Origin: Scytonematopsis contorta HA4267-MV1 | Lineage (GTDB): Bacteria; Cyanobacteriota; Cyanobacteriia; Cyanobacteriales; Nostocaceae | Assembly (NCBI GenBank): GCA_019359035.1 | Contig: JAHHIC010000051.1 | Location: forward strand, 94,146-158,145 | Length of the DNA stretch: 64,000 bases | Reading direction: 5' to 3' | Shown: positions 30,464 to 40,620 of the stretch, in pieces | Numbering within the stretch: position 1 is the stretch's first letter | Layout of the letters: each line of letters begins with the position of its first letter | The notes under the pieces: model-generated | What the model saw: the letters and a program-made list of their open reading frames with translations, nothing else | Database searches by the model: none | What the model was told of the DNA's origin: nothing | Position numbers and translations under genes: made by a program

Positions 30464-30730
30464 ATGAATATCTCCTTGAATCCGGAATTAGAGCAATTTA
30501 TCCAAAGTCAAGTTGCAAATGGTAACTACAATTCAACTGAAGAGGTTATTATTGCGGGTATTAAATTGCTAGAGGAAAGGGAAAGTATTTATAAGGGTCG
30601 GTTTGAAGAACTGCGACAAGAAATCATGGTAGGGGTAAAACAGCTTGAACGTGGAGAACGGCTTGACGGTAAAGAAGTAATTGAAAAACTACGTCAAAAA
30701 AATCAAGCAACGAGAAAGGCTGAGGCGTAA
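30464..30730 (+). CDS. parD: ParD-family type II antitoxin
   Basis: The N-terminal MNISLNPELEQFIQSQVANGNYNSTEEVIIAGIKLLEERE is ParD/RHH-like. Confidence 0.8.
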   Translation: MNISLNPELEQFIQSQVANGNYNSTEEVIIAGIKLLEERESIYKGRFEELRQEIMVGVKQLERGERLDGKEVIEKLRQKNQATRKAEA

Positions 30731-30737
30731 TATATTA

Positions 30738-31031
30738 ATGAGCATCTACTTTGTATCGCCTGAAGCAGCTCAAGACTTGCAAGAAATTAATGATTACCTG
30801 TTCGCGAAAAACCCAGATATCGCCAACAAGTTTTTGGATACTATGATTCAAAAGTTTGAGATATTAGCAAATTTTCCTAATATGGGACGTAGACGTGATG
30901 AACTTTCAACAGCTCTGCGTAGCTTTCCAGTGGATGATTATCTAATTTTTTATCAGCAATTTGAAGAAGGAATTGAAATTGTCCGTGTAGTTAGTGGTTA
31001 TCGCGATTTGAATGCGCTTTTTGATGAATAG
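30738..31031 (+). CDS. parE: ParE/RelE-family type II toxin. The start is moved to the ATG after the parD stop.
   Basis: MSIYFVSPEAAQDLQEINDYL...EIVRVVSGYRDL is ParE-like. It abuts parD. Confidence 0.8.
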   Translation: MSIYFVSPEAAQDLQEINDYLFAKNPDIANKFLDTMIQKFEILANFPNMGRRRDELSTALRSFPVDDYLIFYQQFEEGIEIVRVVSGYRDLNALFDE

Positions 31032-31207: not shown

Positions 31208-32794
31208 TTATTTCGAGTTATTAATACTAATTAAATCGCTCAAAATACTGTCCAAGCTGCCATTGACTTGAATTTTATCAATTTTTTCGGCAATTCGTTC
31301 CAACACTTCGAGTTCTTTCAACCGCAATGCAATAGGATTATCTTCCATGACTTTAGCGGTGTTGAGCATACTACGAGTTGCAGCAGTTTCTTCACGACGT
31401 CTAACTACGTTAGCTTGAGCAGCTTTTTCCGCTTCGACTACTTTACTCAAGATAGTTTTTATCTCACCTGGTAAGATAATATCTTTAACTCCCACAGAAG
31501 CTACTTCAATTCCATAGTCTGCTGTTTTAGAACGAATGTAGTCAGAAATACTCGTGTCAACAGCACCTTTATCTTCAAGTAACGCATCAAGAGTCTTTTC
31601 ACCAACAGCCCCACGTAATGCAAACTGTAATTCTTTGTACAAGAAGCTACTTGCATCTGACAAAGTATTTTTTGCTCGTAGTGGTTCGACGATACGATAA
31701 CCTGCTGTCAAGTTTAATCGCAAAGGCACCTTATCTTTGGAAAGGATATCTTGACCAGATACTTCCATTGTTTGTTGACGCAAGTCAAAAACTTCCGTTT
31801 GAAAAGACCGTCCAAATATCCACCAAGCGTGAATTCCTGGTCGCAGTTCAGATTGGTACTCTTGGTTAATATATAGTAGACCGATATGCTGTGCTTTAAC
31901 TTCACAAAGATGCAAACTCTTGCAAGCAAGATAAGTTACTTCTGGTAAACCAGAGTTTAATTCAGCTACTAAGCGAGGTGGTAACTTAGCATCGGTGCTG
32001 ATATCTATAACTTCCACTTCTACACCTTGCCAAAATAGCTTGCGACTAGATGGCGCTAATATAGAAATGGCTTTACCTTCATATCGCACAATAGCTACTT
32101 GAGTATTCAGTAATTGCACGACTACACAATAAGCAGCAATAAAGTCGGGATGTCTTTGAATTAATACATCTTCGAGTGGAAAATCTGGATTTGGTATGAT
32201 TCGGTTAAGAGTACGAACAGTTACCTCTCTATCAAAAGTCCAAAATGCATATTCACCTGGTTCCAAAGGTCGAACAAAGTTATTTTGCACATACAGTAAA
32301 CCAACCTCAGACTCGGAAATTCGGAATTTTTTAATTCCATTTAAAGTAAGACTGCACGTTTGTAGACGAAACTCAGATGGCAACTCTAAGCTTTCTTCCA
32401 AGTTAAAGATATGCGCTTCCACTTCAATAAAACCACGCCAAAATGCACGTAGTTGATTTGGTGCAACGCTTACCCAGTTTTGACCATAATGTACCAAAGC
32501 TGCTTGATTAAATGCAGTTCTAACGATTACTAAGTAATCTACCAACTCCGAACTGTGGTTTCGCAGCAATAATTCTAAGTTTTCAATCTTTGCTTCTGGC
32601 ACGTTAAGGTCATAGGTTTTAACTTGCCAGTGTCTACCAAAGTAAGTATAAGTACCGGGTTGCAATATTTTCTTAAAATCGCTTCGATGATACAAAATTC
32701 CAAATTCGTTAGGTTTGATATAAAAGGTTTTCCACATAATAATATTGATAGATAATTCGGGCATTTTTACCCAGTCCAGATTAAATAAAGCCAT
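31208..32794 (-). CDS. SPFH/band-7 (slipin-like) domain protein with a large N-terminal extension
   Basis: The C-terminal region VASVGVKDIILPGEIKTILSKVVEAEKAAQANVVRRREETAA is characteristic of stomatin/prohibitin-type SPFH domains. Confidence 0.65.
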   Translation of the reverse strand: MALFNLDWVKMPELSINIIMWKTFYIKPNEFGILYHRSDFKKILQPGTYTYFGRHWQVKTYDLNVPEAKIENLELLLRNHSSELVDYLVIVRTAFNQAALVHYGQNWVSVAPNQLRAFWRGFIEVEAHIFNLEESLELPSEFRLQTCSLTLNGIKKFRISESEVGLLYVQNNFVRPLEPGEYAFWTFDREVTVRTLNRIIPNPDFPLEDVLIQRHPDFIAAYCVVVQLLNTQVAIVRYEGKAISILAPSSRKLFWQGVEVEVIDISTDAKLPPRLVAELNSGLPEVTYLACKSLHLCEVKAQHIGLLYINQEYQSELRPGIHAWWIFGRSFQTEVFDLRQQTMEVSGQDILSKDKVPLRLNLTAGYRIVEPLRAKNTLSDASSFLYKELQFALRGAVGEKTLDALLEDKGAVDTSISDYIRSKTADYGIEVASVGVKDIILPGEIKTILSKVVEAEKAAQANVVRRREETAATRSMLNTAKVMEDNPIALRLKELEVLERIAEKIDKIQVNGSLDSILSDLISINNSK

Positions 32795-33365: not shown

Positions 33366-33559
33366 GATGGGACAGTTTCACTGCGCTGTTCGGCATACGC
33401 ACAATTTAATCATCTTGGCGCACCAGTTGGGTATACTGAACCCAAACTATAGATTCGCTTGTGTATTACTGTCTTACTACATAACGTAACACACGATATG
33501 TAAAGCGTCAACCTTCCTAATATATTGTTTATTTTCCAGGGAATAATAAGTTCAAGAAA

Positions 33560-34640
33560 GGGCGTAATTGTATACACCCTCGTTGGTAAGCTAATTGGGT
33601 AAAGTACTAAACAGCAGCATTTTTCCTCACAGTTTCCACGTCTAATTCCAAGGACTCGGCAATTTGCTCAATGCTTAACCCTAACTTAAGTAGCTTGGGA
33701 ATGGTTTTCAACTTGATACCAAGCGCACCTTCTTCTCGTCCTTCTTCTCGTCCTTCTTCTCGTCCTTCTTCCTTACCTTGCAAGTAAACCTTGCTTTTTC
33801 TCAGCGACTCTAATTCAAGCATAACTTCTAACTCCTCCATGCTCAGGTTTGGAAATTTGTCCATCACTACCGTTTGAATAAATTCTAAGACTTTTTCTTG
33901 CAAAACGGCGTTGCTTACTTCCGATTTTGTTTGCTTTATCAACTGTCGAGCAAATTCTCCTGTTTGATTTTTTCTCTTTTTCTCGACAACTAAGCGCATG
34001 ATTCCTACTCCAAGGGATTGATTGGGAGTCTTTCCTAGTTCGTCTAAATAAAACCGACGTAAAGCTGGTAAGAATATCTTTAAATATGGGGGAAATCTTC
34101 CTTCGCTGCTGCGTTTATCATAAATGACAATAGCGTACCATTCCTCGTTGGTTGGGTCATATTGGGTCAAATAAAGTATTATCTTGCCAAAAAAGCTTTT
34201 GTAGAAGTTTTTATCTTTGTAAGCCTGTGCTTCAATGAAATAAATTGGGTCAAAGCTATATCCAGGACGAGTTGAAAGCAAACCATCTAGACGAAAACCT
34301 TGTTGCTTTACTTCCGGAGCGCTGTATTGATAAGCGCTCTTGCTATGATGTGGTTTATCTATGAGTTCAAAGAATAATTCTGGTATGTCTTTGAAAATTT
34401 TATAAAAAAGTGGGTCGGCTGTCATTCGCTTTTTGCTTACTTTTACAGTAATGCGGTAGATATCATCAGTACGATATCACTAGTAATTTTTATTTTTTCT
34501 TGATGATATATAAATATTTACAGTAACAATATTAGTCAATATCTCAGTGATAAATAAAACAGATAATCTTGTATTTATCAGTACTATTTAAAATTCAACG
34601 ATAGTAAGAACTAAGAACCTAACCTCTAAAACTAATCAAT
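33560..34640 (-). mobile_element. Rpn-family element copy 1 of ~1.1 kb (gene plus conserved flanks)
   Basis: Nucleotide similarity to the 39500-40620 copy extends about 40 bp past the stop and about 200 bp upstream of the start. Confidence 0.6.
33607..34425 (-). CDS. Rpn/YhgA-like PD-(D/E)XK putative transposase (copy 1) with a C-terminal (EGRE)n repeat
   Basis: The N-terminal MTADPLFYKIFKDIPELFFELI matches the conserved start of this family. There are four 12-nt repeats encoding EEGR. It is about 90% identical to the 39550-40404 paralog. Confidence 0.65.
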   Translation of the reverse strand: MTADPLFYKIFKDIPELFFELIDKPHHSKSAYQYSAPEVKQQGFRLDGLLSTRPGYSFDPIYFIEAQAYKDKNFYKSFFGKIILYLTQYDPTNEEWYAIVIYDKRSSEGRFPPYLKIFLPALRRFYLDELGKTPNQSLGVGIMRLVVEKKRKNQTGEFARQLIKQTKSEVSNAVLQEKVLEFIQTVVMDKFPNLSMEELEVMLELESLRKSKVYLQGKEEGREEGREEGREEGALGIKLKTIPKLLKLGLSIEQIAESLELDVETVRKNAAV

Positions 34641-34913
34641 ACTGCTCGGTTAAGCAAATCACGAAGAGTGAAACACCTGTAGAAGCATTACATGTAACGT
34701 CTCTACATACTAAAACCATTGAAAACGGGTTAGGATGATTATTATAGTTAGCTTTAGCGTTGCTTCAGCTTTTAGTTAGAGCTAAAGTTCAGGGCTTTTC
34801 TTCGCTCTAATTTTATTATCTAGAAAAAAAAGTTAATAAATTCAGGAAACTACAATACTAAACATGTATTAACTATCAAACATAAATATATATATTTACA
34901 ACTATTTACTACC

Positions 34914-35630
34914 ATGAAAAAAATTTTAATATTATTAGCCAACCCTCAAAACACAGATAAACTACGGTTAGACCAAGAAGTACGAGGAATTCAAGATTCC
35001 CTACAACGGTCTAAAAATAGAGAACAGTTTGAAATAGTTACAGAATGGGCAGTACAAGTTGATGACCTGCGTCGTGCTTTATTGACTTACCAACCGACTA
35101 TTGTTCACTTCTCTGGACATGGGTCACAGGGTCAAGGTTTAGTCTTGGAAAATAACTTGGGACAAATGCAGGTAATAAGCACAGAATCTCTAGCCCGCTT
35201 ATTTAAATTATTTCAAAATCATGTTGAGTGCGTTTTACTTAATGCTTGCTATAGTGAAGACCAAGCCGAAGCAATTCATCAACATATTGATTATGTAATA
35301 GGAATGAATCGAGCGATAGGAGATAAAGCCGCAATTGAATTTGCTGTAGGATTTTATGATGCGCTGGGTGCGGGTAGAACATATGAGGATTGTTTTGAAG
35401 TAGGCTGTGCATCTGTTGATTTAAAAGGAATTCCGGAGTCACAAACCCCAGCAATCAAAGCTAGAAAGCGTTCTTCCTCTGAAACTAGGACAAATAAAGA
35501 AAACACAACACCAGTAGAACCAGTAAATAGTGAACCAGTAAATAGTGGTTCAATCACACAGACAGCCGGTGATAATGCAATTCTGTTTGGAAACATTACA
35601 CAGGCAGGTAATTTGAATATTCAAAAATAG
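34914..35630 (+). CDS. stand-alone CHAT/caspase-like domain protein
   Basis: A His/Cys dyad lies in conserved contexts: TIVHFSGHGSQGQG and ECVLLNACYSEDQAEAI. The N-terminal LILLANPQNTDKLRLDQEVRGIQDSLQRS is typical of cyanobacterial CHAT-like N-domains. Confidence 0.75.
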   Translation: MKKILILLANPQNTDKLRLDQEVRGIQDSLQRSKNREQFEIVTEWAVQVDDLRRALLTYQPTIVHFSGHGSQGQGLVLENNLGQMQVISTESLARLFKLFQNHVECVLLNACYSEDQAEAIHQHIDYVIGMNRAIGDKAAIEFAVGFYDALGAGRTYEDCFEVGCASVDLKGIPESQTPAIKARKRSSSETRTNKENTTPVEPVNSEPVNSGSITQTAGDNAILFGNITQAGNLNIQK

Positions 35631-35639
35631 GAGCAAGCT

Positions 35640-38291
35640 ATGACCAGCACAATTTCTCAATCAGCTGGCAATAATGCGATTTTGTTCGGAAGCATTGGAC
35701 AAGTAGGAACTATTAATATTCTCAAGCTTGATTCTGAGCTAGGCAATAAGGTAATGCTTTCGACCTCTCTGGAAAGCCAGCAATTTCCCAAACCTCGTCC
35801 CCTTCCCGTTCTCTTACCTCCTCGTCCATTTCCTTTATTACTGGGTCGTCGTGAAGAAGTCAAAGTAGCCGTTGATGCTTTACCATACGACCAATCAGTA
35901 GAGTTCTATGGTTCTCCAGGTATGGGTAAGTCAGTCATTCTAAGATATCTGGCTCATCATCCATCGATTACTCCCGCTTTTAATGATGGTATTATTTACC
36001 ATCAGTGTGTCAAACATCAATCGATATCTGATTTACTACAAATTCTTTTTAACGCTTTCCATGATTGTGGAACTTCCTTTAAGCTTACAGATATTCAAAT
36101 TCGTGAAGCTCTCAAAAATAAAAAAGCTTTGGTTTTGTTAAATAATGTAAAGCTAACAAGAGAAGAAGTACAAATTTTAATCAATGTCTTACCCAGCTTT
36201 ACTTTTCTTTTTGCTTCCCAAGAGCGTCAACTTTGGGGTGAGGGACATCCCATCAAGTTGGGAGGGTTGCCTTTAAATGATGCTGTGTCTTTGCTTACCA
36301 GAGACATAGGACATCCTTTGAACGTAGAAGAACACTCTGCTGCTGAAGCACTGTGTAAAGCTTTGGATGGTCATCCCCTGCAAATTCTTCAGGCTTCTGC
36401 ATTGGTAAAAGAGGAAAATATTTCTTTAGTTGTTTTTGCTCAACAAATTAATACGACCGCTTCCAGTAGCTCTGGGAATGAGCGCTTGTTAAAGTCATTA
36501 ACAAAAGCTCAGCGGATGATTTTGGTTTTACTTGCTGCTTTTGGGGCAAATATTGCTTTAGGAGCGGAATTAATTGGTGATTTGACTGAAATCCCTCAGA
36601 TTAAACCAATTTTAGAGACATTATTACGACGCAATTTAGTACAGGTAGATGAAGAACGTTTTAATATTGCAAGTTCCCTAGTTGAGGAGTTATGTCAGAA
36701 AGAAAACATCACAGCCTTTATGGAAAAGTCTGTGAGCTACTTTACAAATTGGGTACAAAAAAATCAGGGTATTTCAGGAAATTTAACTTCACAATCGGAA
36801 GCGATATCAGAAGCAATAATTAAAGTATTAGAATGGTCATTTGAGCTTAGTAGATTTTCTGATGTCATAACTTTAGGAAAGTCTATAGAGAAAGGATTAG
36901 CTCTGAGTGGAGAATGGGATAGATGGAATAAAGTGTTGCAATGGGTACTTGAAGCAGCACGTGCAACTGGAAATCAAGCGATTGAAGCTTTTGCTTTGCA
37001 TCAATTGGGTACTCGTTCTCTTTGTTTAAATGAGGTGATTGAAGCTCAGAGTTATTTAAACCAAGCTCTCCATATTAGACAGCTATTAAATGACCAATCA
37101 GGGATAGAAGTAACTAGTCATAATCTCCAGTTTCTTTTAAATCCACCTTTACTGCCGCTATTGGAGCCTGAATCTGAGTCGGTAAGTCATGTAGACGAAA
37201 ATGTTGCAGACAACAAAAACCACCCACTATTGATGAAACTGGGTGTTGCTGCTCTATTGTTAGGGTTAGGGGGAATATTATTACCCGTATTTCTAAAACC
37301 TGCGACTCTTCCCCCAATTGAAACTACTCCCTCAAATGAAACACCTACCCCAATTGAAACTACTCCCTCAAATGAAACACCTACCCCAATTGAAACTACT
37401 CCCTCAAATGAAACACCTAAACCAATTGAAACTACTCCCTCAAATGAAACACCTACCCCAATTGAAACTACTCCCTCAAATGAAACACCTACCCCAATTG
37501 AAACTACTCCCTCAAATGAAACACCTAAACCAGTTGAAACTACTCCCTCAAATGAAACACCTACCCCAACTGTAGAGTCCAAGCTTATCTCTTTAGTTCT
37601 GGAACCCAACGAAAATGTAAGTAAGGGTACAAGAATACGAGGAAAAGTCACTATTGATAACCCTGCTCCTGCTGATGGCATTACAATTAAACTTACAAGT
37701 AGCAATAAATCTATTGCTCGCGTACAAGAAAAAGTAAGAATTCTAGCAGGGGAAGTTGAAGCAAACTTTGGTTTTGTAATTCCTAAAGAAAGCAGCGATA
37801 ACCCTAATGATGAATCTGTAGAAATTTCAGCTTCATATCAAGAAAAAGTTAAAACAGCAACAATAACCCTACTTCCACAAAAGACGGAAGAAGCAGAACT
37901 AATTTCTTTATCGCTAGATAAAAAGCTTGTAGGTTGGGGTGAAAAATTAGTGTTAACAGTGACTCTCAGCAATCCTGCACCAAATGATGGTATCGTCATT
38001 AATTTAGAAAGCGATAAACCATATCTTGCTCCCGTAGAAGCGAGCGTGAAAATTTCAGCTGGTGAAAAGCAAGCAACCTCAGAGTTCTCAACACCAAAAG
38101 ATGGTGATAATTTTCCAGACGGAGCCAACATAAAAATTACAGCATCTTATAGAGAAGTATCCAAAGTTGAATCATTCCAGATAATACCTTACCGCAGGAC
38201 AGGTACTTCAGTTTTAAAACCAAACGCGACCCGAAGATTCATAACCCCTTATCGGCTGGACTTACAGAAAAAACCTCCCAAACTTAATTAA
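35640..38291 (+). CDS. Membrane-anchored STAND (NB-ARC-like) NTPase. Domains in order: NTPase, winged helix, TM helix, eight 12-aa Thr/Pro-rich repeats, then two Ig-like beta-sandwich domains.
   Basis: An AGGAG RBS precedes the ATG. The P-loop reads FYGSPGMGKSVIL, Walker B reads KALVLLNNV, and a GLPL-type motif appears as KLGGLPLNDAV. The TM segment is LMKLGVAALLLGLGGILLPVFL. The (PIETTPSNETPT)x8 block is encoded by perfect 36-bp DNA repeats at 37313-37566. Two homologous ~100-aa modules follow: ...NPAPADGITIKLTSSNK... and ...NPAPNDGIVINLESDKP... Confidence 0.8.
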   Translation: MTSTISQSAGNNAILFGSIGQVGTINILKLDSELGNKVMLSTSLESQQFPKPRPLPVLLPPRPFPLLLGRREEVKVAVDALPYDQSVEFYGSPGMGKSVILRYLAHHPSITPAFNDGIIYHQCVKHQSISDLLQILFNAFHDCGTSFKLTDIQIREALKNKKALVLLNNVKLTREEVQILINVLPSFTFLFASQERQLWGEGHPIKLGGLPLNDAVSLLTRDIGHPLNVEEHSAAEALCKALDGHPLQILQASALVKEENISLVVFAQQINTTASSSSGNERLLKSLTKAQRMILVLLAAFGANIALGAELIGDLTEIPQIKPILETLLRRNLVQVDEERFNIASSLVEELCQKENITAFMEKSVSYFTNWVQKNQGISGNLTSQSEAISEAIIKVLEWSFELSRFSDVITLGKSIEKGLALSGEWDRWNKVLQWVLEAARATGNQAIEAFALHQLGTRSLCLNEVIEAQSYLNQALHIRQLLNDQSGIEVTSHNLQFLLNPPLLPLLEPESESVSHVDENVADNKNHPLLMKLGVAALLLGLGGILLPVFLKPATLPPIETTPSNETPTPIETTPSNETPTPIETTPSNETPKPIETTPSNETPTPIETTPSNETPTPIETTPSNETPKPVETTPSNETPTPTVESKLISLVLEPNENVSKGTRIRGKVTIDNPAPADGITIKLTSSNKSIARVQEKVRILAGEVEANFGFVIPKESSDNPNDESVEISASYQEKVKTATITLLPQKTEEAELISLSLDKKLVGWGEKLVLTVTLSNPAPNDGIVINLESDKPYLAPVEASVKISAGEKQATSEFSTPKDGDNFPDGANIKITASYREVSKVESFQIIPYRRTGTSVLKPNATRRFITPYRLDLQKKPPKLN
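37313..37566 (+). repeat. 7x36-bp near-perfect in-frame tandem repeat inside the STAND gene
   Basis: The unit CCCAATTGAAACTACTCCCTCAAATGAAACACCTAC is repeated with only a few substitutions (C/A, A/G). Confidence 0.9.
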
Positions 38292-38354
38292 GCTTTGTCA
38301 GCTTTTGAACGCCCTTATAATCTATAAAAATAATAAAATCATTATTATGGGTAA

Positions 38355-39377
38355 TTAACCGGACATGATATAAGGCGCCAAAGCTAAATTTTTCGTGCTA
38401 TCACTAAGTAGAACGCTGTCACACAGGTTAAGCAGTTCAAGTTCCGTAGAGGTTTGTCGCATCTGCCGCAGAAAATGACCTTCAGCGTCAACCAAAAGGG
38501 CTATATAATTAAGGAACATTTTCAGGTAGCCTACACGCGACCGTGCTGGCATAGTTGCTGAGTTAGGGGTTTGCCATAAACGGTCAATATATTTTCGTAC
38601 CTCAACTAAAGGAACAGGTGTGATTGTCTCAGACCGCAAAGCCTGCCGAATTTGATTAAAAATCCAAGGATTTGCTATTGCCCAGCGTCCCACCATCACA
38701 CCAGCCGCACCTGTTTGCGAAAGCACTTCTATTGCTGTTGTGGCAGAGTTGATATTACCATTAGCAAGCACTGGGCAATCGACCCATCTAACTGCTTCGG
38801 CAATCAAATCATATTTCACTGCTCCGTGATACATATCTTTTACCGTGCGACCGTGCAAACTCAGCAAATCAATATTGTGACGATTAATAATATCTAAAAT
38901 TTTGTAAAAGTTATCTGTATTTTCAAAACCTACGCGCATCTTAACGGTCAAAGGTCTATCATTCACCGCAGAACGCAGTTCTCCCAAAATCCTATCAACT
39001 TTTTCGGGTTCTCGCAGTAATCCACCCCCAACATTTTTGCGATAAACTCTAGGTGCTGGACAGCCCATGTTAAAGTCAACCCCAGCTATATTATACTGAC
39101 AGAGTTCCTGTGCTGTTCTTACTAAGTCTGGAATGCTTTCGCCAATCATTTGAGCAAAAACGGGTTGGCCTGTGTCGTTTTCGGTGATTGACGCCAAAAT
39201 GCTACGATTGAGTCGTGAGGTATCATTCACGCGGAAATATTCGGTGAAAAAATAGTCAGGACAGCCGTATTGGGCAATCACCTTCATAAACCAGAGGTTT
39301 GTTACGTCCTGCATAGGAGCAAGAGCAGTCAGGGGTAGGTCTGGATTTCGGGATTGGGGGAGCAATACATGGGACAT
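38355..39377 (-). CDS. dus: tRNA-dihydrouridine synthase (Dus family)
   Basis: LAPMQDVTN and the NMGCP active-site Cys motif are present. The TIM-barrel FMN-binding segments are apparent. Confidence 0.85.
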   Translation of the reverse strand: MSHVLLPQSRNPDLPLTALAPMQDVTNLWFMKVIAQYGCPDYFFTEYFRVNDTSRLNRSILASITENDTGQPVFAQMIGESIPDLVRTAQELCQYNIAGVDFNMGCPAPRVYRKNVGGGLLREPEKVDRILGELRSAVNDRPLTVKMRVGFENTDNFYKILDIINRHNIDLLSLHGRTVKDMYHGAVKYDLIAEAVRWVDCPVLANGNINSATTAIEVLSQTGAAGVMVGRWAIANPWIFNQIRQALRSETITPVPLVEVRKYIDRLWQTPNSATMPARSRVGYLKMFLNYIALLVDAEGHFLRQMRQTSTELELLNLCDSVLLSDSTKNLALAPYIMSG

Positions 39378-39499: not shown

Positions 39500-40620
39500 C
39501 AAGGACATAATTCTATATGCCCTCGTACATAAGCTAATTTGGTAAAATGCTAAACAGCAGCATTTTCCCTCACAGTTTCCACATCTAATTCCAAAGACTC
39601 AGCAACTTGCTCAATGCTTAACCCTAACTTAAGTAGCTTGGGAATGGTTTTTAACTTGTTATCAAGCGCACCCTCCCTAAATCCTTCTTCTCGTCCCTCC
39701 TGTCGTCCCTCTTGTCGTCCTTCTTGTCGTCCTTCTTGTCGTCCTTCTTGCTTACCTTCTAAGTAAACCTTGCTTTTTTTCAGCGACTCTAATTCAAGCA
39801 TAACTTCTAGCTCCTCCATGCTTAGATTGGGAAATTTGTCCATCACCACCGTTTGAATAAATTCTAAGACTTTTTCCTGTAAAACGGCATTACTGACTTC
39901 CGATTTTGTTTGCTGTATTAACTGTCGAGCGAATTCTCCAGTTTTATTTTTCCTTTTTTTATCGACGACTAAGCGCATGATTCCCACACCAAGAGATTGA
40001 TTGGTAGTTTTTCCTAGTTCGTCTAAATAAAACCGACGTAAAGCTGGTAAGAATATCTTTAAATACGGGGGAAATCTTCCTTCGCTGCTGCGTTTGTCGT
40101 AAATGACGACAGCATACCATTCCTCGTTGGTTGGGTCATATTGGGTCAAATAAAGTATTATTTTACCAAAAAAGCTTTTGTAGAAGTTCTTATCTTTATA
40201 AGATTGCGCTTCAATGAAATAAATTGGTTTAAAGCTGTATCCGGAGCGAGTTGAAAGTAACCCATCTAGACGAAAACCTTGTTGTTTGACTTCCGGAGCG
40301 CTATATTGATAAGCACTCTTGCTGTGATGTGGTTGACCTATAAGTTCAAAGAATAATTCTGGTATGTCTTTGAAGATTTTATAAAAAAGTGGGTCGGCTG
40401 TCATTCACTTTTGCTCTTTTTTGCGGTAATGTAGTAGATTCAATTAGTAAAATATCATTATAAAAATTGATTTTTTTTGATAATATATAAATATTTACAC
40501 TAACAAGATAAACCAAAATTTAGGTAATAAATAAAACGGACAACATGGTATTTATTAGTACCTATTTAAAACTCAACCATAGTCATAACTAATAACCTAA
40601 CCCCTAACTGATATCTTGTA
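39500..40620 (-). mobile_element. Rpn-family element copy 2
   Basis: In direct orientation with copy 1. The two copies bracket about 4.9 kb. Confidence 0.6.
39550..40404 (-). CDS. Rpn/YhgA-like PD-(D/E)XK putative transposase (copy 2) with a longer (QEGR)n repeat
   Basis: Paralog of the 33607-34425 gene. The N-terminus is identical and the 12-nt repeat copy number differs. Confidence 0.65.
   Translation of the reverse strand: MTADPLFYKIFKDIPELFFELIGQPHHSKSAYQYSAPEVKQQGFRLDGLLSTRSGYSFKPIYFIEAQSYKDKNFYKSFFGKIILYLTQYDPTNEEWYAVVIYDKRSSEGRFPPYLKIFLPALRRFYLDELGKTTNQSLGVGIMRLVVDKKRKNKTGEFARQLIQQTKSEVSNAVLQEKVLEFIQTVVMDKFPNLSMEELEVMLELESLKKSKVYLEGKQEGRQEGRQEGRQEGRQEGREEGFREGALDNKLKTIPKLLKLGLSIEQVAESLELDVETVRENAAV

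Follow-up and report, generated by a model that had tools for sequence, protein, structure and literature searches.

A caspase-like CHAT protein and a predicted membrane-anchored NLR-like NTPase paired through a shared terminal motif in the filamentous cyanobacterium Scytonematopsis contorta

The present work concerns a cassette of two genes, 3.4 kb in length, found in a stretch of 64,000 nucleotides (hereafter the window) from Scytonematopsis contorta HA4267-MV1, a filamentous cyanobacterium whose assembly is a Nostocales metagenome-assembled genome (GCA_019359035.1, contig JAHHIC010000051.1, positions 94,146 to 158,145 of the forward strand). Gene 1 (34914..35630, ATG start, 238 amino acids) encodes a CHAT effector with a C-terminal adaptor motif, and gene 2 (35640..38291, ATG start, 883 amino acids) encodes a membrane-anchored STAND NTPase (signal transduction ATPase with numerous domains) resembling the NOD-like receptors (NLRs; NOD, nucleotide-binding oligomerization domain). 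Both genes, with all their parts described below, lie on the plus strand, and their coordinates are exactly those given in an earlier reading of the sequence, hereafter the original prediction. Database records identical to both proteins (100%) describe the first as a 'CHAT domain-containing protein' and the second as a hypothetical protein. A short motif ends the first protein and opens the second, and this shared motif is real and constitutes the key to the system.

The junction between the two genes reads ...ATTCAAAAA TAG GAGCAAGCT ATG (in letters, ...AAA TAG GAG CAA GCT ATG), with a spacer of 9 nt between the TAG of gene 1 and the ATG of gene 2 (35628–35642) and both open reading frames (ORFs) in the same frame, a single TAG apart. 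The Shine-Dalgarno-like sequence AGGAG of gene 2 (35629..35633) overlaps the stop codon of gene 1, and the TAG+GAG arrangement is conserved in close relatives. Scanning of positions 34300–38500 for promoters and terminators yielded counts no higher than the shuffle expectation and no site between the genes, which is compatible with a single operon. The stop codon is retained in all 17 loci examined, with spacers of 9 nt in 13 of them and of 10, 20, 21 or 103 nt in the remaining ones; the three spacers of 10, 20 and 103 nt are out of frame, and two spacers contain a further in-frame stop. Read-through of the TAG in Scytonematopsis would yield a fusion with two tandem copies of the motif, but the out-of-frame spacers and extra stops at other loci indicate that read-through is not a conserved feature. 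Both genes are, by their substitution pattern, under purifying selection, with ratios of non-synonymous to synonymous substitutions (dN/dS) of 0.06 for the CHAT domain (measured against the orthologue at locus L088) and of 0.14 for the NLR.

The assignment of gene 1 to the CHAT proteins is based on several concordant matches. Pfam CHAT (PF12770) recognized the protein with an E-value of 5.1e-10 (39.7 bits versus a cutoff of 24), and the PADLOC 'chat' model with an E-value of 8.4e-21. In an AlphaFold2 model built from 37 homologues, the catalytic domain (amino acids 1–183, 34914..35462) adopts an alpha/beta fold, while the predicted local distance difference test score (pLDDT) falls below 50 over amino acids 187–238. 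The top solved structure retrieved by Foldseek for this domain was 8TL0, the activated SAVED-CHAT filament (E 7e-13, TM-score 0.63–0.65, 24–25% identity), followed by a C11 protease and by caspases-4 and -9. The family profile likewise matched 8TL0 (E 2.5e-19), pairing HFsGHG with HFIGHG and NACYs with LNACCT. The minimal CHAT fold with a His/Cys dyad seen in the original prediction is thereby confirmed, since His69 (in SGHG) and Cys112 (in NACYS) align with HFIGHG and LNAC of 8TL0; Cys112 is invariant and His69 is found in at least 90% of the 37 homologues. On these alignments the predicted catalytic dyad is present, and the gene 1 product is classed as a CHAT (clan CD, caspase-like) protease of caspase/hemoglobinase fold, for which proteolytic activity is predicted.

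While the CHAT domain itself is 57–96% identical across more than 100 homologues, the tails of these proteins are interchangeable, and consist of the present motif, other Q/N-rich motifs, helical extensions of ~120 amino acids or fusions to TIR. In the Scytonematopsis protein, domain and motif are separated by a low-complexity, disordered linker (amino acids 184–209, 35463..35540; pLDDT below 50 from residue 187) which contains EPVNS twice as the result of a 15-nt tandem duplication, detected by Tandem Repeats Finder as a 15-nt period at 35517–35547. Both length and sequence of this linker differ among homologues. In one sub-lineage of partner CHAT proteins (L003:3248-3991, from Nostoc sp. NIES-3756, and P0143) SGHG has become AGNR, with loss of the histidine and retention of NACYS. 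Judging from sequence, these proteins may be inactive or decoy effectors which are still paired with an intact NLR.

The two copies of the shared motif are located at the C-terminus of the CHAT protein (SGSITQTAGDNAILFGNITQAGNLNIQK, amino acids 210–238, 35541..35627), where it is a putative amyloid-signalling or homotypic adaptor sequence, and at the N-terminus of the NLR (TSTISQSAGNNAILFGSIGQVGTINILK, amino acids 2–29, 35643..35726), a position in which it is kept in orthologous NLRs. Their likeness, already pointed out in the original prediction, is well beyond chance: local alignment of CHAT residues 210–238 with NLR residues 1–29 scored 83, versus 37.8±4.8 for shuffled sequences, with a maximum of 57 in 300 shuffles. 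No third copy was found within the window. The motif spans ~26 amino acids and is rich in Gln, Asn and Gly (35–38%, with the CHAT copy at 38%), contains no proline and a single lysine, and appeared disordered in the AlphaFold2 monomer model of the CHAT tail (pLDDT below 50).

The pairing extends beyond Scytonematopsis. We examined 80 loci with relatives of the NLR, together with several gene neighbourhoods, and every NLR with an N-terminal motif of the present type was found to have an adjacent, collinear upstream gene that ends in the same motif (13 genome or metagenome loci, plus four close orthologous loci). The upstream partner is a mini-CHAT protein in most of these motif-paired loci. At L004 and L013, by contrast, an orthologous NLR has as its partner a helical protein of 138–143 amino acids whose N-terminal helix is hydrophobic and which matches no Pfam family. 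The motif is, therefore, both conserved and modular. The original prediction had proposed two origins for it, either the recent split of a fusion gene or a shared peptide used for effector–NTPase docking. The second is the one supported and favoured by our data, and the first is not, as the pair is conserved among NLRs down to ~36% identity (L016) and the motif also couples non-CHAT effectors to orthologous NLRs. A comparable principle has been described for effector-associated domains (EADs), in which a constant core NTPase and a separate effector share a small adaptor (Kaur et al. 2020, PMC7159879). No Pfam EAD family (EAD1–11) was detected in either protein at E<=1; the motif pair plays the part of an EAD pair without belonging to the EADs.

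Behind its motif, the NLR contains an NB-ARC-like NOD module with a winged-helix-like region (amino acids ~70–360, 35847..36719). The match to Pfam NB-ARC (PF00931) is marginal, at 23.9 bits versus a cutoff of 23.5, with relatives reaching 26–37 bits (up to 36.7), and the family profile matched one PDB sequence only, that of the STAND ATPase PH0952 (6mfv), which has a TPR sensor (E 1.3e-3, profile positions 163–356). The Walker A motif GSPGMGKS (K97), the sensor-1 residue Arg196 and the GLPL-like motif GHPL are all conserved in the columns of the NLR family. Walker B is an atypical LVLLNN, in which Asn168 (AAT, 36141–36143) replaces Asp; among 141 family members this position is Asp in 137, Glu in three and Asn only in the present NLR. 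Two independent metagenome orthologues (L088 and L091, 88–95% identical) carry the same Asn, and for this reason, along with the purifying selection acting on the gene, Asn168 is a fixed lineage-specific trait and no sequencing error. A pseudogene was considered and rejected as the main reading of this residue on the strength of the independent orthologues and the low dN/dS. Despite lacking the hhhhD[D/E] form of Walker B, the protein is by homology a member of the family, which falls within the NB-ARC/AP-ATPase clade of STAND NTPases. In P-loop NTPases, replacement of the Walker B Asp by Asn usually slows hydrolysis more than it affects binding, and the switch of the Asn168 lineage may be long-lived or reset in a different way.

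The cytoplasmic part of the protein is completed by a helical, TPR-like region (amino acids ~380–500, 36777..37139) which ends in the family-invariant ALHQLGTR. The NCBIfam HaaT TPR model matched NLR residues 393–488 with an E-value of 7.6e-7. PADLOC and NCBIfam together gave no system-level assignment of the NLR; among their hits, a match to HetF (E 0.007) was discarded as covering a partial domain, and a match to GltJ as due to the low-complexity Pro/Thr-rich (P/T) linker described below.

Past the TPR-like region a single transmembrane (TM) helix is predicted (LLMKLGVAALLLGLGGILLPVFL, amino acids 530–552, 37227..37295), in agreement with the original prediction, with a Kyte-Doolittle peak of 2.45 in a 19-residue window. 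This helix is a property of the family, since 73 of the 81 representatives in which the ALHQLGTR anchor could be located show a TM-like segment 30–260 amino acids past it (typically ~60–120), followed by another 20–1,100 residues. In the Scytonematopsis protein the helix is followed by a P/T-rich linker (amino acids 559–642, 37314..37565) built from seven 12-residue (36-nt) repeats of the form P[IV]ETTPSNETP[TK], for which Tandem Repeats Finder reported a period of 36 at 37312–37569 with 7.2 copies and 95% matches. The eight perfect repeats announced in the original prediction are thus to be corrected to seven: PIETTPSNETPT occurs unaltered in four, the last residue is K in two more, and the remaining one contains V. 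The 95% identity at the DNA level suggests a recent expansion or contraction, and the linker is hypervariable between close orthologues, with PIETTPSNETPT repeated seven times in one case and a long (TP)n run in the other, the 88%-identical L088 (L088:8200-8496).

Beyond the linker lie two immunoglobulin (Ig)-like beta-sandwich modules (amino acids 649–744, 37584..37874, and amino acids 754–848, 37899..38186), the second being a paralogue of the first. Their homology over ~100 amino acids each, also claimed originally, is borne out by a local score of 169 versus 29.3±5.3 for shuffles. AlphaFold2 returned two 7-stranded beta-sandwiches (mean pLDDT 83.6, from a shallow alignment of nine rows), which Foldseek related to the tandem Ig domains of titin Z1Z2, LigA and PECAM-1 (E about 1e-7). 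A weak Pfam LapA match was observed on module 2, and a homology search with the ectodomain alone retrieved two proteins only. The same Ig module is repeated 12–17 times in the giant proteins P0187, P0211 and P0260 (2,400–4,600 amino acids), as in surface adhesins. The protein finishes in a basic, disordered tail of 28 residues (amino acids 856–883, 38205..38288; pLDDT below 50). Domain, profile and model evidence hence agree with the architecture first proposed, in which a CHAT protein acts in trans to an NLR composed of motif, NB-ARC-like module, TM helix and Ig-like modules. The conserved TM helix, the extracytoplasmic type of the domains swapped behind it (see below) and the hypervariable linker support an N-in/C-out topology in which the part after the helix would be extracytoplasmic, in the periplasm or the cell envelope, and would form a rapidly changing ectodomain.

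An exhaustive HMMER search with the NLR retrieved 5,308 cluster representatives (clustered at 50% identity) at E<=1e-3, and 988 of them at E<=1e-30. Genomic matches of this clade were distributed among cyanobacteria, Anaerolineae and other Chloroflexota, Acidobacteriota, Actinomycetota, Gemmatimonadota and others. In most homologues the cytoplasmic 55–65% of the NLR is the only part that aligns, and behind the TM segment the domains are swapped among relatives, including fn3, Big_9/cadherin-like, CARDB, PapD-like Ig, lamin-tail and LysM. Domains of these types are usually found outside the cytoplasm.

Variation is also seen on the N-terminal side of the clade. Members with a different N-terminal motif (GEISGQVAVG...IGSVHGGVVN) have neighbours that carry the matching motif, either small downstream proteins of 141–148 amino acids or a Peptidase_C14 caspase, and yet another N-terminal motif is matched on neighbouring TIR_2 proteins; according to precomputed annotation, the relatives P0053-62 contain TIR Pfam domains. 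Fused and split arrangements, whose comparison the original prediction had proposed, both occur among relatives: beside the 17 split loci there are all-in-one proteins with the order mini-CHAT-motif-NOD-TM-Ig (P0186), CHAT-NOD-TM (P0190) and trypsin-NOD (P0246), the first of which has one copy of the motif only. As far as can be judged from these domain assignments, the predicted effectors of the clade comprise CHAT, caspase, TIR and small helical proteins, which are fused to the NLR or else coupled to it via a shared terminal motif. In addition, the Anaerolineae relatives L018, L022, L027, L033 and L039 begin with one or two zinc ribbons (MKCPKCGFENRPDARFCKQCG), and a similar zinc ribbon occurs in neighbouring genes; in Chloroflexota members, the zinc ribbon may take the place of the peptide motif as the shared element.

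Bacterial amyloid signalling sequences (BASS) have been described in multicellular bacteria as motifs of ~25 amino acids, rich in Q/N/G, with which an effector ends and an NB-ARC or NACHT protein begins; the two genes are adjacent and collinear, in most pairs no more than 10 bp apart (bioRxiv 10.1101/2020.01.06.895854). According to the same work, these motifs are enriched in Q/N/G and hydrophobic residues, depleted in P and K, and unstructured before assembly. Because the features of the present motif and its genomic layout match these published criteria, an amyloid-signalling reading suggests itself. We therefore favour, as a probable though far from certain explanation, that the cassette is a two-gene operon in which an NLR-type switch and a death or proteolysis effector are non-covalently coupled by a short homotypic motif, with a membrane-spanning NLR and amyloid-like templating of the effector.

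In such a system, the NLR would face the cytoplasm from its N-terminal motif through the NB-ARC-like NTPase to the TPR-like region, with the P/T linker and the two Ig-like modules on the far side of the membrane. The NLR would oligomerize through its NOD module in response to a cue, such as contact with a phage, damage to the envelope or material from the surface of foreign cells, which most likely acts on the variable ectodomain. The N-terminal motifs clustered in this way could fold into a beta-arch, amyloid-like stack, which in turn would template the same motif on the disordered tail of the CHAT protein. The CHAT domains would thus be concentrated into a polymer and become active by proximity, as in Apaf-1/caspase-9 or in the SAVED-CHAT filament, and active CHAT would then cleave cellular targets, resulting in growth arrest or death of the affected cell within the filament.

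Several observations weigh against this explanation. Amyloid formation, proximity activation, the extracytoplasmic trigger and the outcome in cell death or defence are all suggested by analogy. When the core strings of the motif (GDNA[IV], IQFG and others) were looked up in the BASS1–10 pair table, no match beyond a loose likeness to BASS6 was obtained, in a comparison that consisted of a string search of the supplementary table plus reading of the BASS6–10 and unassigned rows. Cognate motif pairs are more alike than non-cognate ones (mean 72 versus 64, permutation p=0.006), yet this difference is modest and driven by two loci. PADLOC found no Avs/NACHT or other defence-protein model for the NLR, its only matches being weak and irrelevant (PD-T4-6, E 0.005, on the P/T linker; TPR, E 0.046). 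With Asn in place of the Walker B Asp, the NTPase cycle of this lineage may be atypical. As to topology, the TM helix is flanked by too few charges for the positive-inside rule to give a clear orientation signal and, in a cyanobacterium, the side beyond the membrane could formally be the thylakoid lumen. Lastly, variability is the only feature that points to sensing by the ectodomain, and the sensor could instead lie in the cytoplasm, in the TPR-like region.

This last point leads to the alternative that survives best, namely that the TM helix and the Ig modules merely anchor the complex to envelope, septum or peptidoglycan, and that the TPR-like region reads a cytoplasmic cue as in soluble Avs proteins or NLRs. 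The TPR-like region does occupy the sensor position of soluble STANDs, it is difficult to see how a signal would cross by a single TM helix unless clustering took place, and the wall-binding LysM found in some relatives looks like an anchor. However, at ~120 amino acids the TPR-like region is short, and few parts of the family are better conserved (ALHQLGTR is invariant), whereas sensors of conflict systems usually vary; the module that is variable and swapped in this clade is the post-TM region. On balance we regard a mere anchoring role as doubtful, although it deserves serious consideration.

A somewhat less probable alternative accepts the pairing and disputes its nature: the shared motif could be an ordinary, non-amyloid docking peptide, acting by beta-strand augmentation or in a small hetero-oligomer, which tethers CHAT constitutively to the NLR and leaves activation to a conformational change of the latter. 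The amyloid character of the motif is drawn from analogy, its strings are not among the BASS1–10 table entries, and in related systems the task is fulfilled by homotypic non-amyloid EADs (PMC7159879). On the other hand, the motif, at ~26 amino acids, is too short and too rich in Q/N/G for a globular EAD, it has no Pfam EAD match and is disordered in the AlphaFold2 model, and the gene layout is that of BASS pairs, several of which are proven amyloid or prion formers. We consequently hold simple docking to be unlikely. Finally, a recently split or read-through fusion gene (a single CHAT-NLR polypeptide produced via TAG read-through or hidden by an assembly error) or a decaying remnant, which the common frame of the two ORFs a single TAG apart, the fused CHAT-NOD-TM relatives P0186 and P0190 and the Asn168 replacement might bring to mind, is very improbable in view of the stop retained in 17/17 loci, the three out-of-frame spacers and the extra in-frame stops in two, the AGGAG before the ATG, the retention of both motif copies versus one in fused P0186, the dN/dS of 0.06–0.14, evidence that both genes are maintained, and the occurrence of Asn168 in independent orthologues; frameshift, fusion artefact and recent split were rejected since the junction is conserved across loci, and the separate two-gene layout of the original prediction stands.

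Regarding the genomic surroundings, two direct repeats of ~1 kb (33558–34593 and 39501–40570, 86–90% identical, ~5.96 kb apart) bracket the CHAT, NLR and dus genes. Each of them contains a DUF2887 gene on the minus strand (33607–34425 and 39550–40404) with a length-variable (E/Q)EGR tandem repeat near its C-terminus. Of the two DUF2887 genes, the upstream one is missing from the related contig L089. Just upstream are a ParD/ParE toxin-antitoxin pair (30464–31031) and a 528-amino-acid SPFH/Band_7 protein (31208–32794, minus strand), and the order ParD-Band_7-...-CHAT recurs in metagenome contig L089.

NLR and STAND receptors are taken to act as sensors within the cytoplasm. Should the clade signal across the membrane, the cell surface could be where NLR-type immunity or the control of cell death begins in bacteria. 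As a tentative extension, which we consider possible but clearly less probable than the mechanism favoured for the cassette itself, the pair could represent a large unnamed clade (~1,000 clusters) of membrane-spanning NLRs devoted to outside-in immune or non-self sensing via swappable Ig, fn3, cadherin and LysM domains, in which clustering of the NOD modules would launch amyloid-templated caspase-like, TIR or pore-forming effectors. If so, phage particles, envelope damage or foreign cells would be detected before entry into the cytoplasm by a protein that functionally combines a surface pattern-recognition receptor with an NLR, and three usually separate themes, i.e. surface receptors, STAND switches and amyloid signalling to caspase-like proteases, would be joined. 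If the protein is merely a membrane-tethered version of a cytoplasmic sensor, it would be an ordinary addition to the catalogue. In either case, the compact cassette, with point-mutation handles at C112, H69, K97, N168 and the GDN turn of the motif, offers a practical test case, and bears on the possible activation of an enzyme, in place of a pore-former, by a BASS-type motif and on the way in which a single-pass NLR is triggered.

A description of a TM-anchored NB-ARC-like clade with swappable ectodomains, or of the present type of motif, was not found in the literature, whose coverage here was incomplete and gives weak evidence of novelty. What we did encounter on this theme were general statements on TM-type C-termini of bacterial NACHT proteins and on membrane-proximal iSTAND and GAP1 systems; such NACHT proteins, with TM regions at the C-terminus, form a recognized category (bioRxiv 10.1101/2022.07.19.500537).

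Among known systems, the Bell/NLR pairs of BASS1–10 (Dyrka, Saupe et al. 2020) and the fungal HET-S/NWD2, which serves as their model, resemble the present pair in motif position, Q/N/G richness, short spacer, filamentous multicellular host, alternative CHAT and TIR effectors and the existence of fused relatives. CHAT, TIR2, alpha/beta-hydrolase and cyclase have in fact been reported as alternatives to the Bell effector, together with all-in-one fusions in other genomes (bioRxiv 10.1101/2020.01.06.895854). Our pair departs from those of BASS1–10 in that the NLR is predicted to be membrane-anchored, with a C-terminus of extracytoplasmic type where those NLRs have TPR or WD repeats alone; a predicted protease takes the place of the pore-forming Bell effector, the core motif strings are absent from the BASS1–10 pair table, and amyloid formation is proposed by analogy. 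For Bab/Agp (BASS11) of Escherichia coli, amyloid templating in abortive infection and phage defence has been demonstrated experimentally (bioRxiv 10.1101/2024.11.07.622273). This system likewise comprises two genes, with a sensor that activates a death effector via a shared terminal amyloid motif, but Bab is a membrane-targeting helical domain. According to its authors, CHAT and NB-ARC proteins encoded by adjacent genes also carry BASS11 (bioRxiv 10.1101/2024.11.07.622273).

The closest solved relative of the effector domain is the SAVED-CHAT of type III-B CRISPR (PDB 8TL0). Since this entry represents the activated filament, this type of CHAT can be switched on by polymerization. In SAVED-CHAT, activation occurs through cyclic oligoadenylate on the fused SAVED domain, whereas the CHAT protein described here has no SAVED and its recruitment to the NLR would use the terminal peptide. 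EAD systems and membrane-proximal STAND or GTPase conflict systems (Kaur, Burroughs, Iyer, Aravind 2020/2021) share with the present pair an adaptor copy on both the core and a separate effector, caspase-like effectors and enrichment in cyanobacteria, and some of them contain TM segments followed by peptidoglycan-binding or cadherin domains, as in the clade described here; nevertheless, EADs are globular and mostly alpha-helical, and no Pfam EAD is present in our pair. Likewise, in Apaf-1/caspase-9 and in bacterial NACHT/Avs STANDs, oligomerization of the NB-ARC or STAND module recruits and activates a caspase-fold protease via a homotypic adaptor. The Scytonematopsis pair differs from these in that the adaptor is a short peptide and not a CARD, the sensor side would lie across the membrane, and no PADLOC Avs/NACHT match exists. 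Overall, the known part of the system is the BASS-type NLR/effector logic, CHAT effectors included, and the less-described part is the membrane-anchored NLR with its ectodomains.

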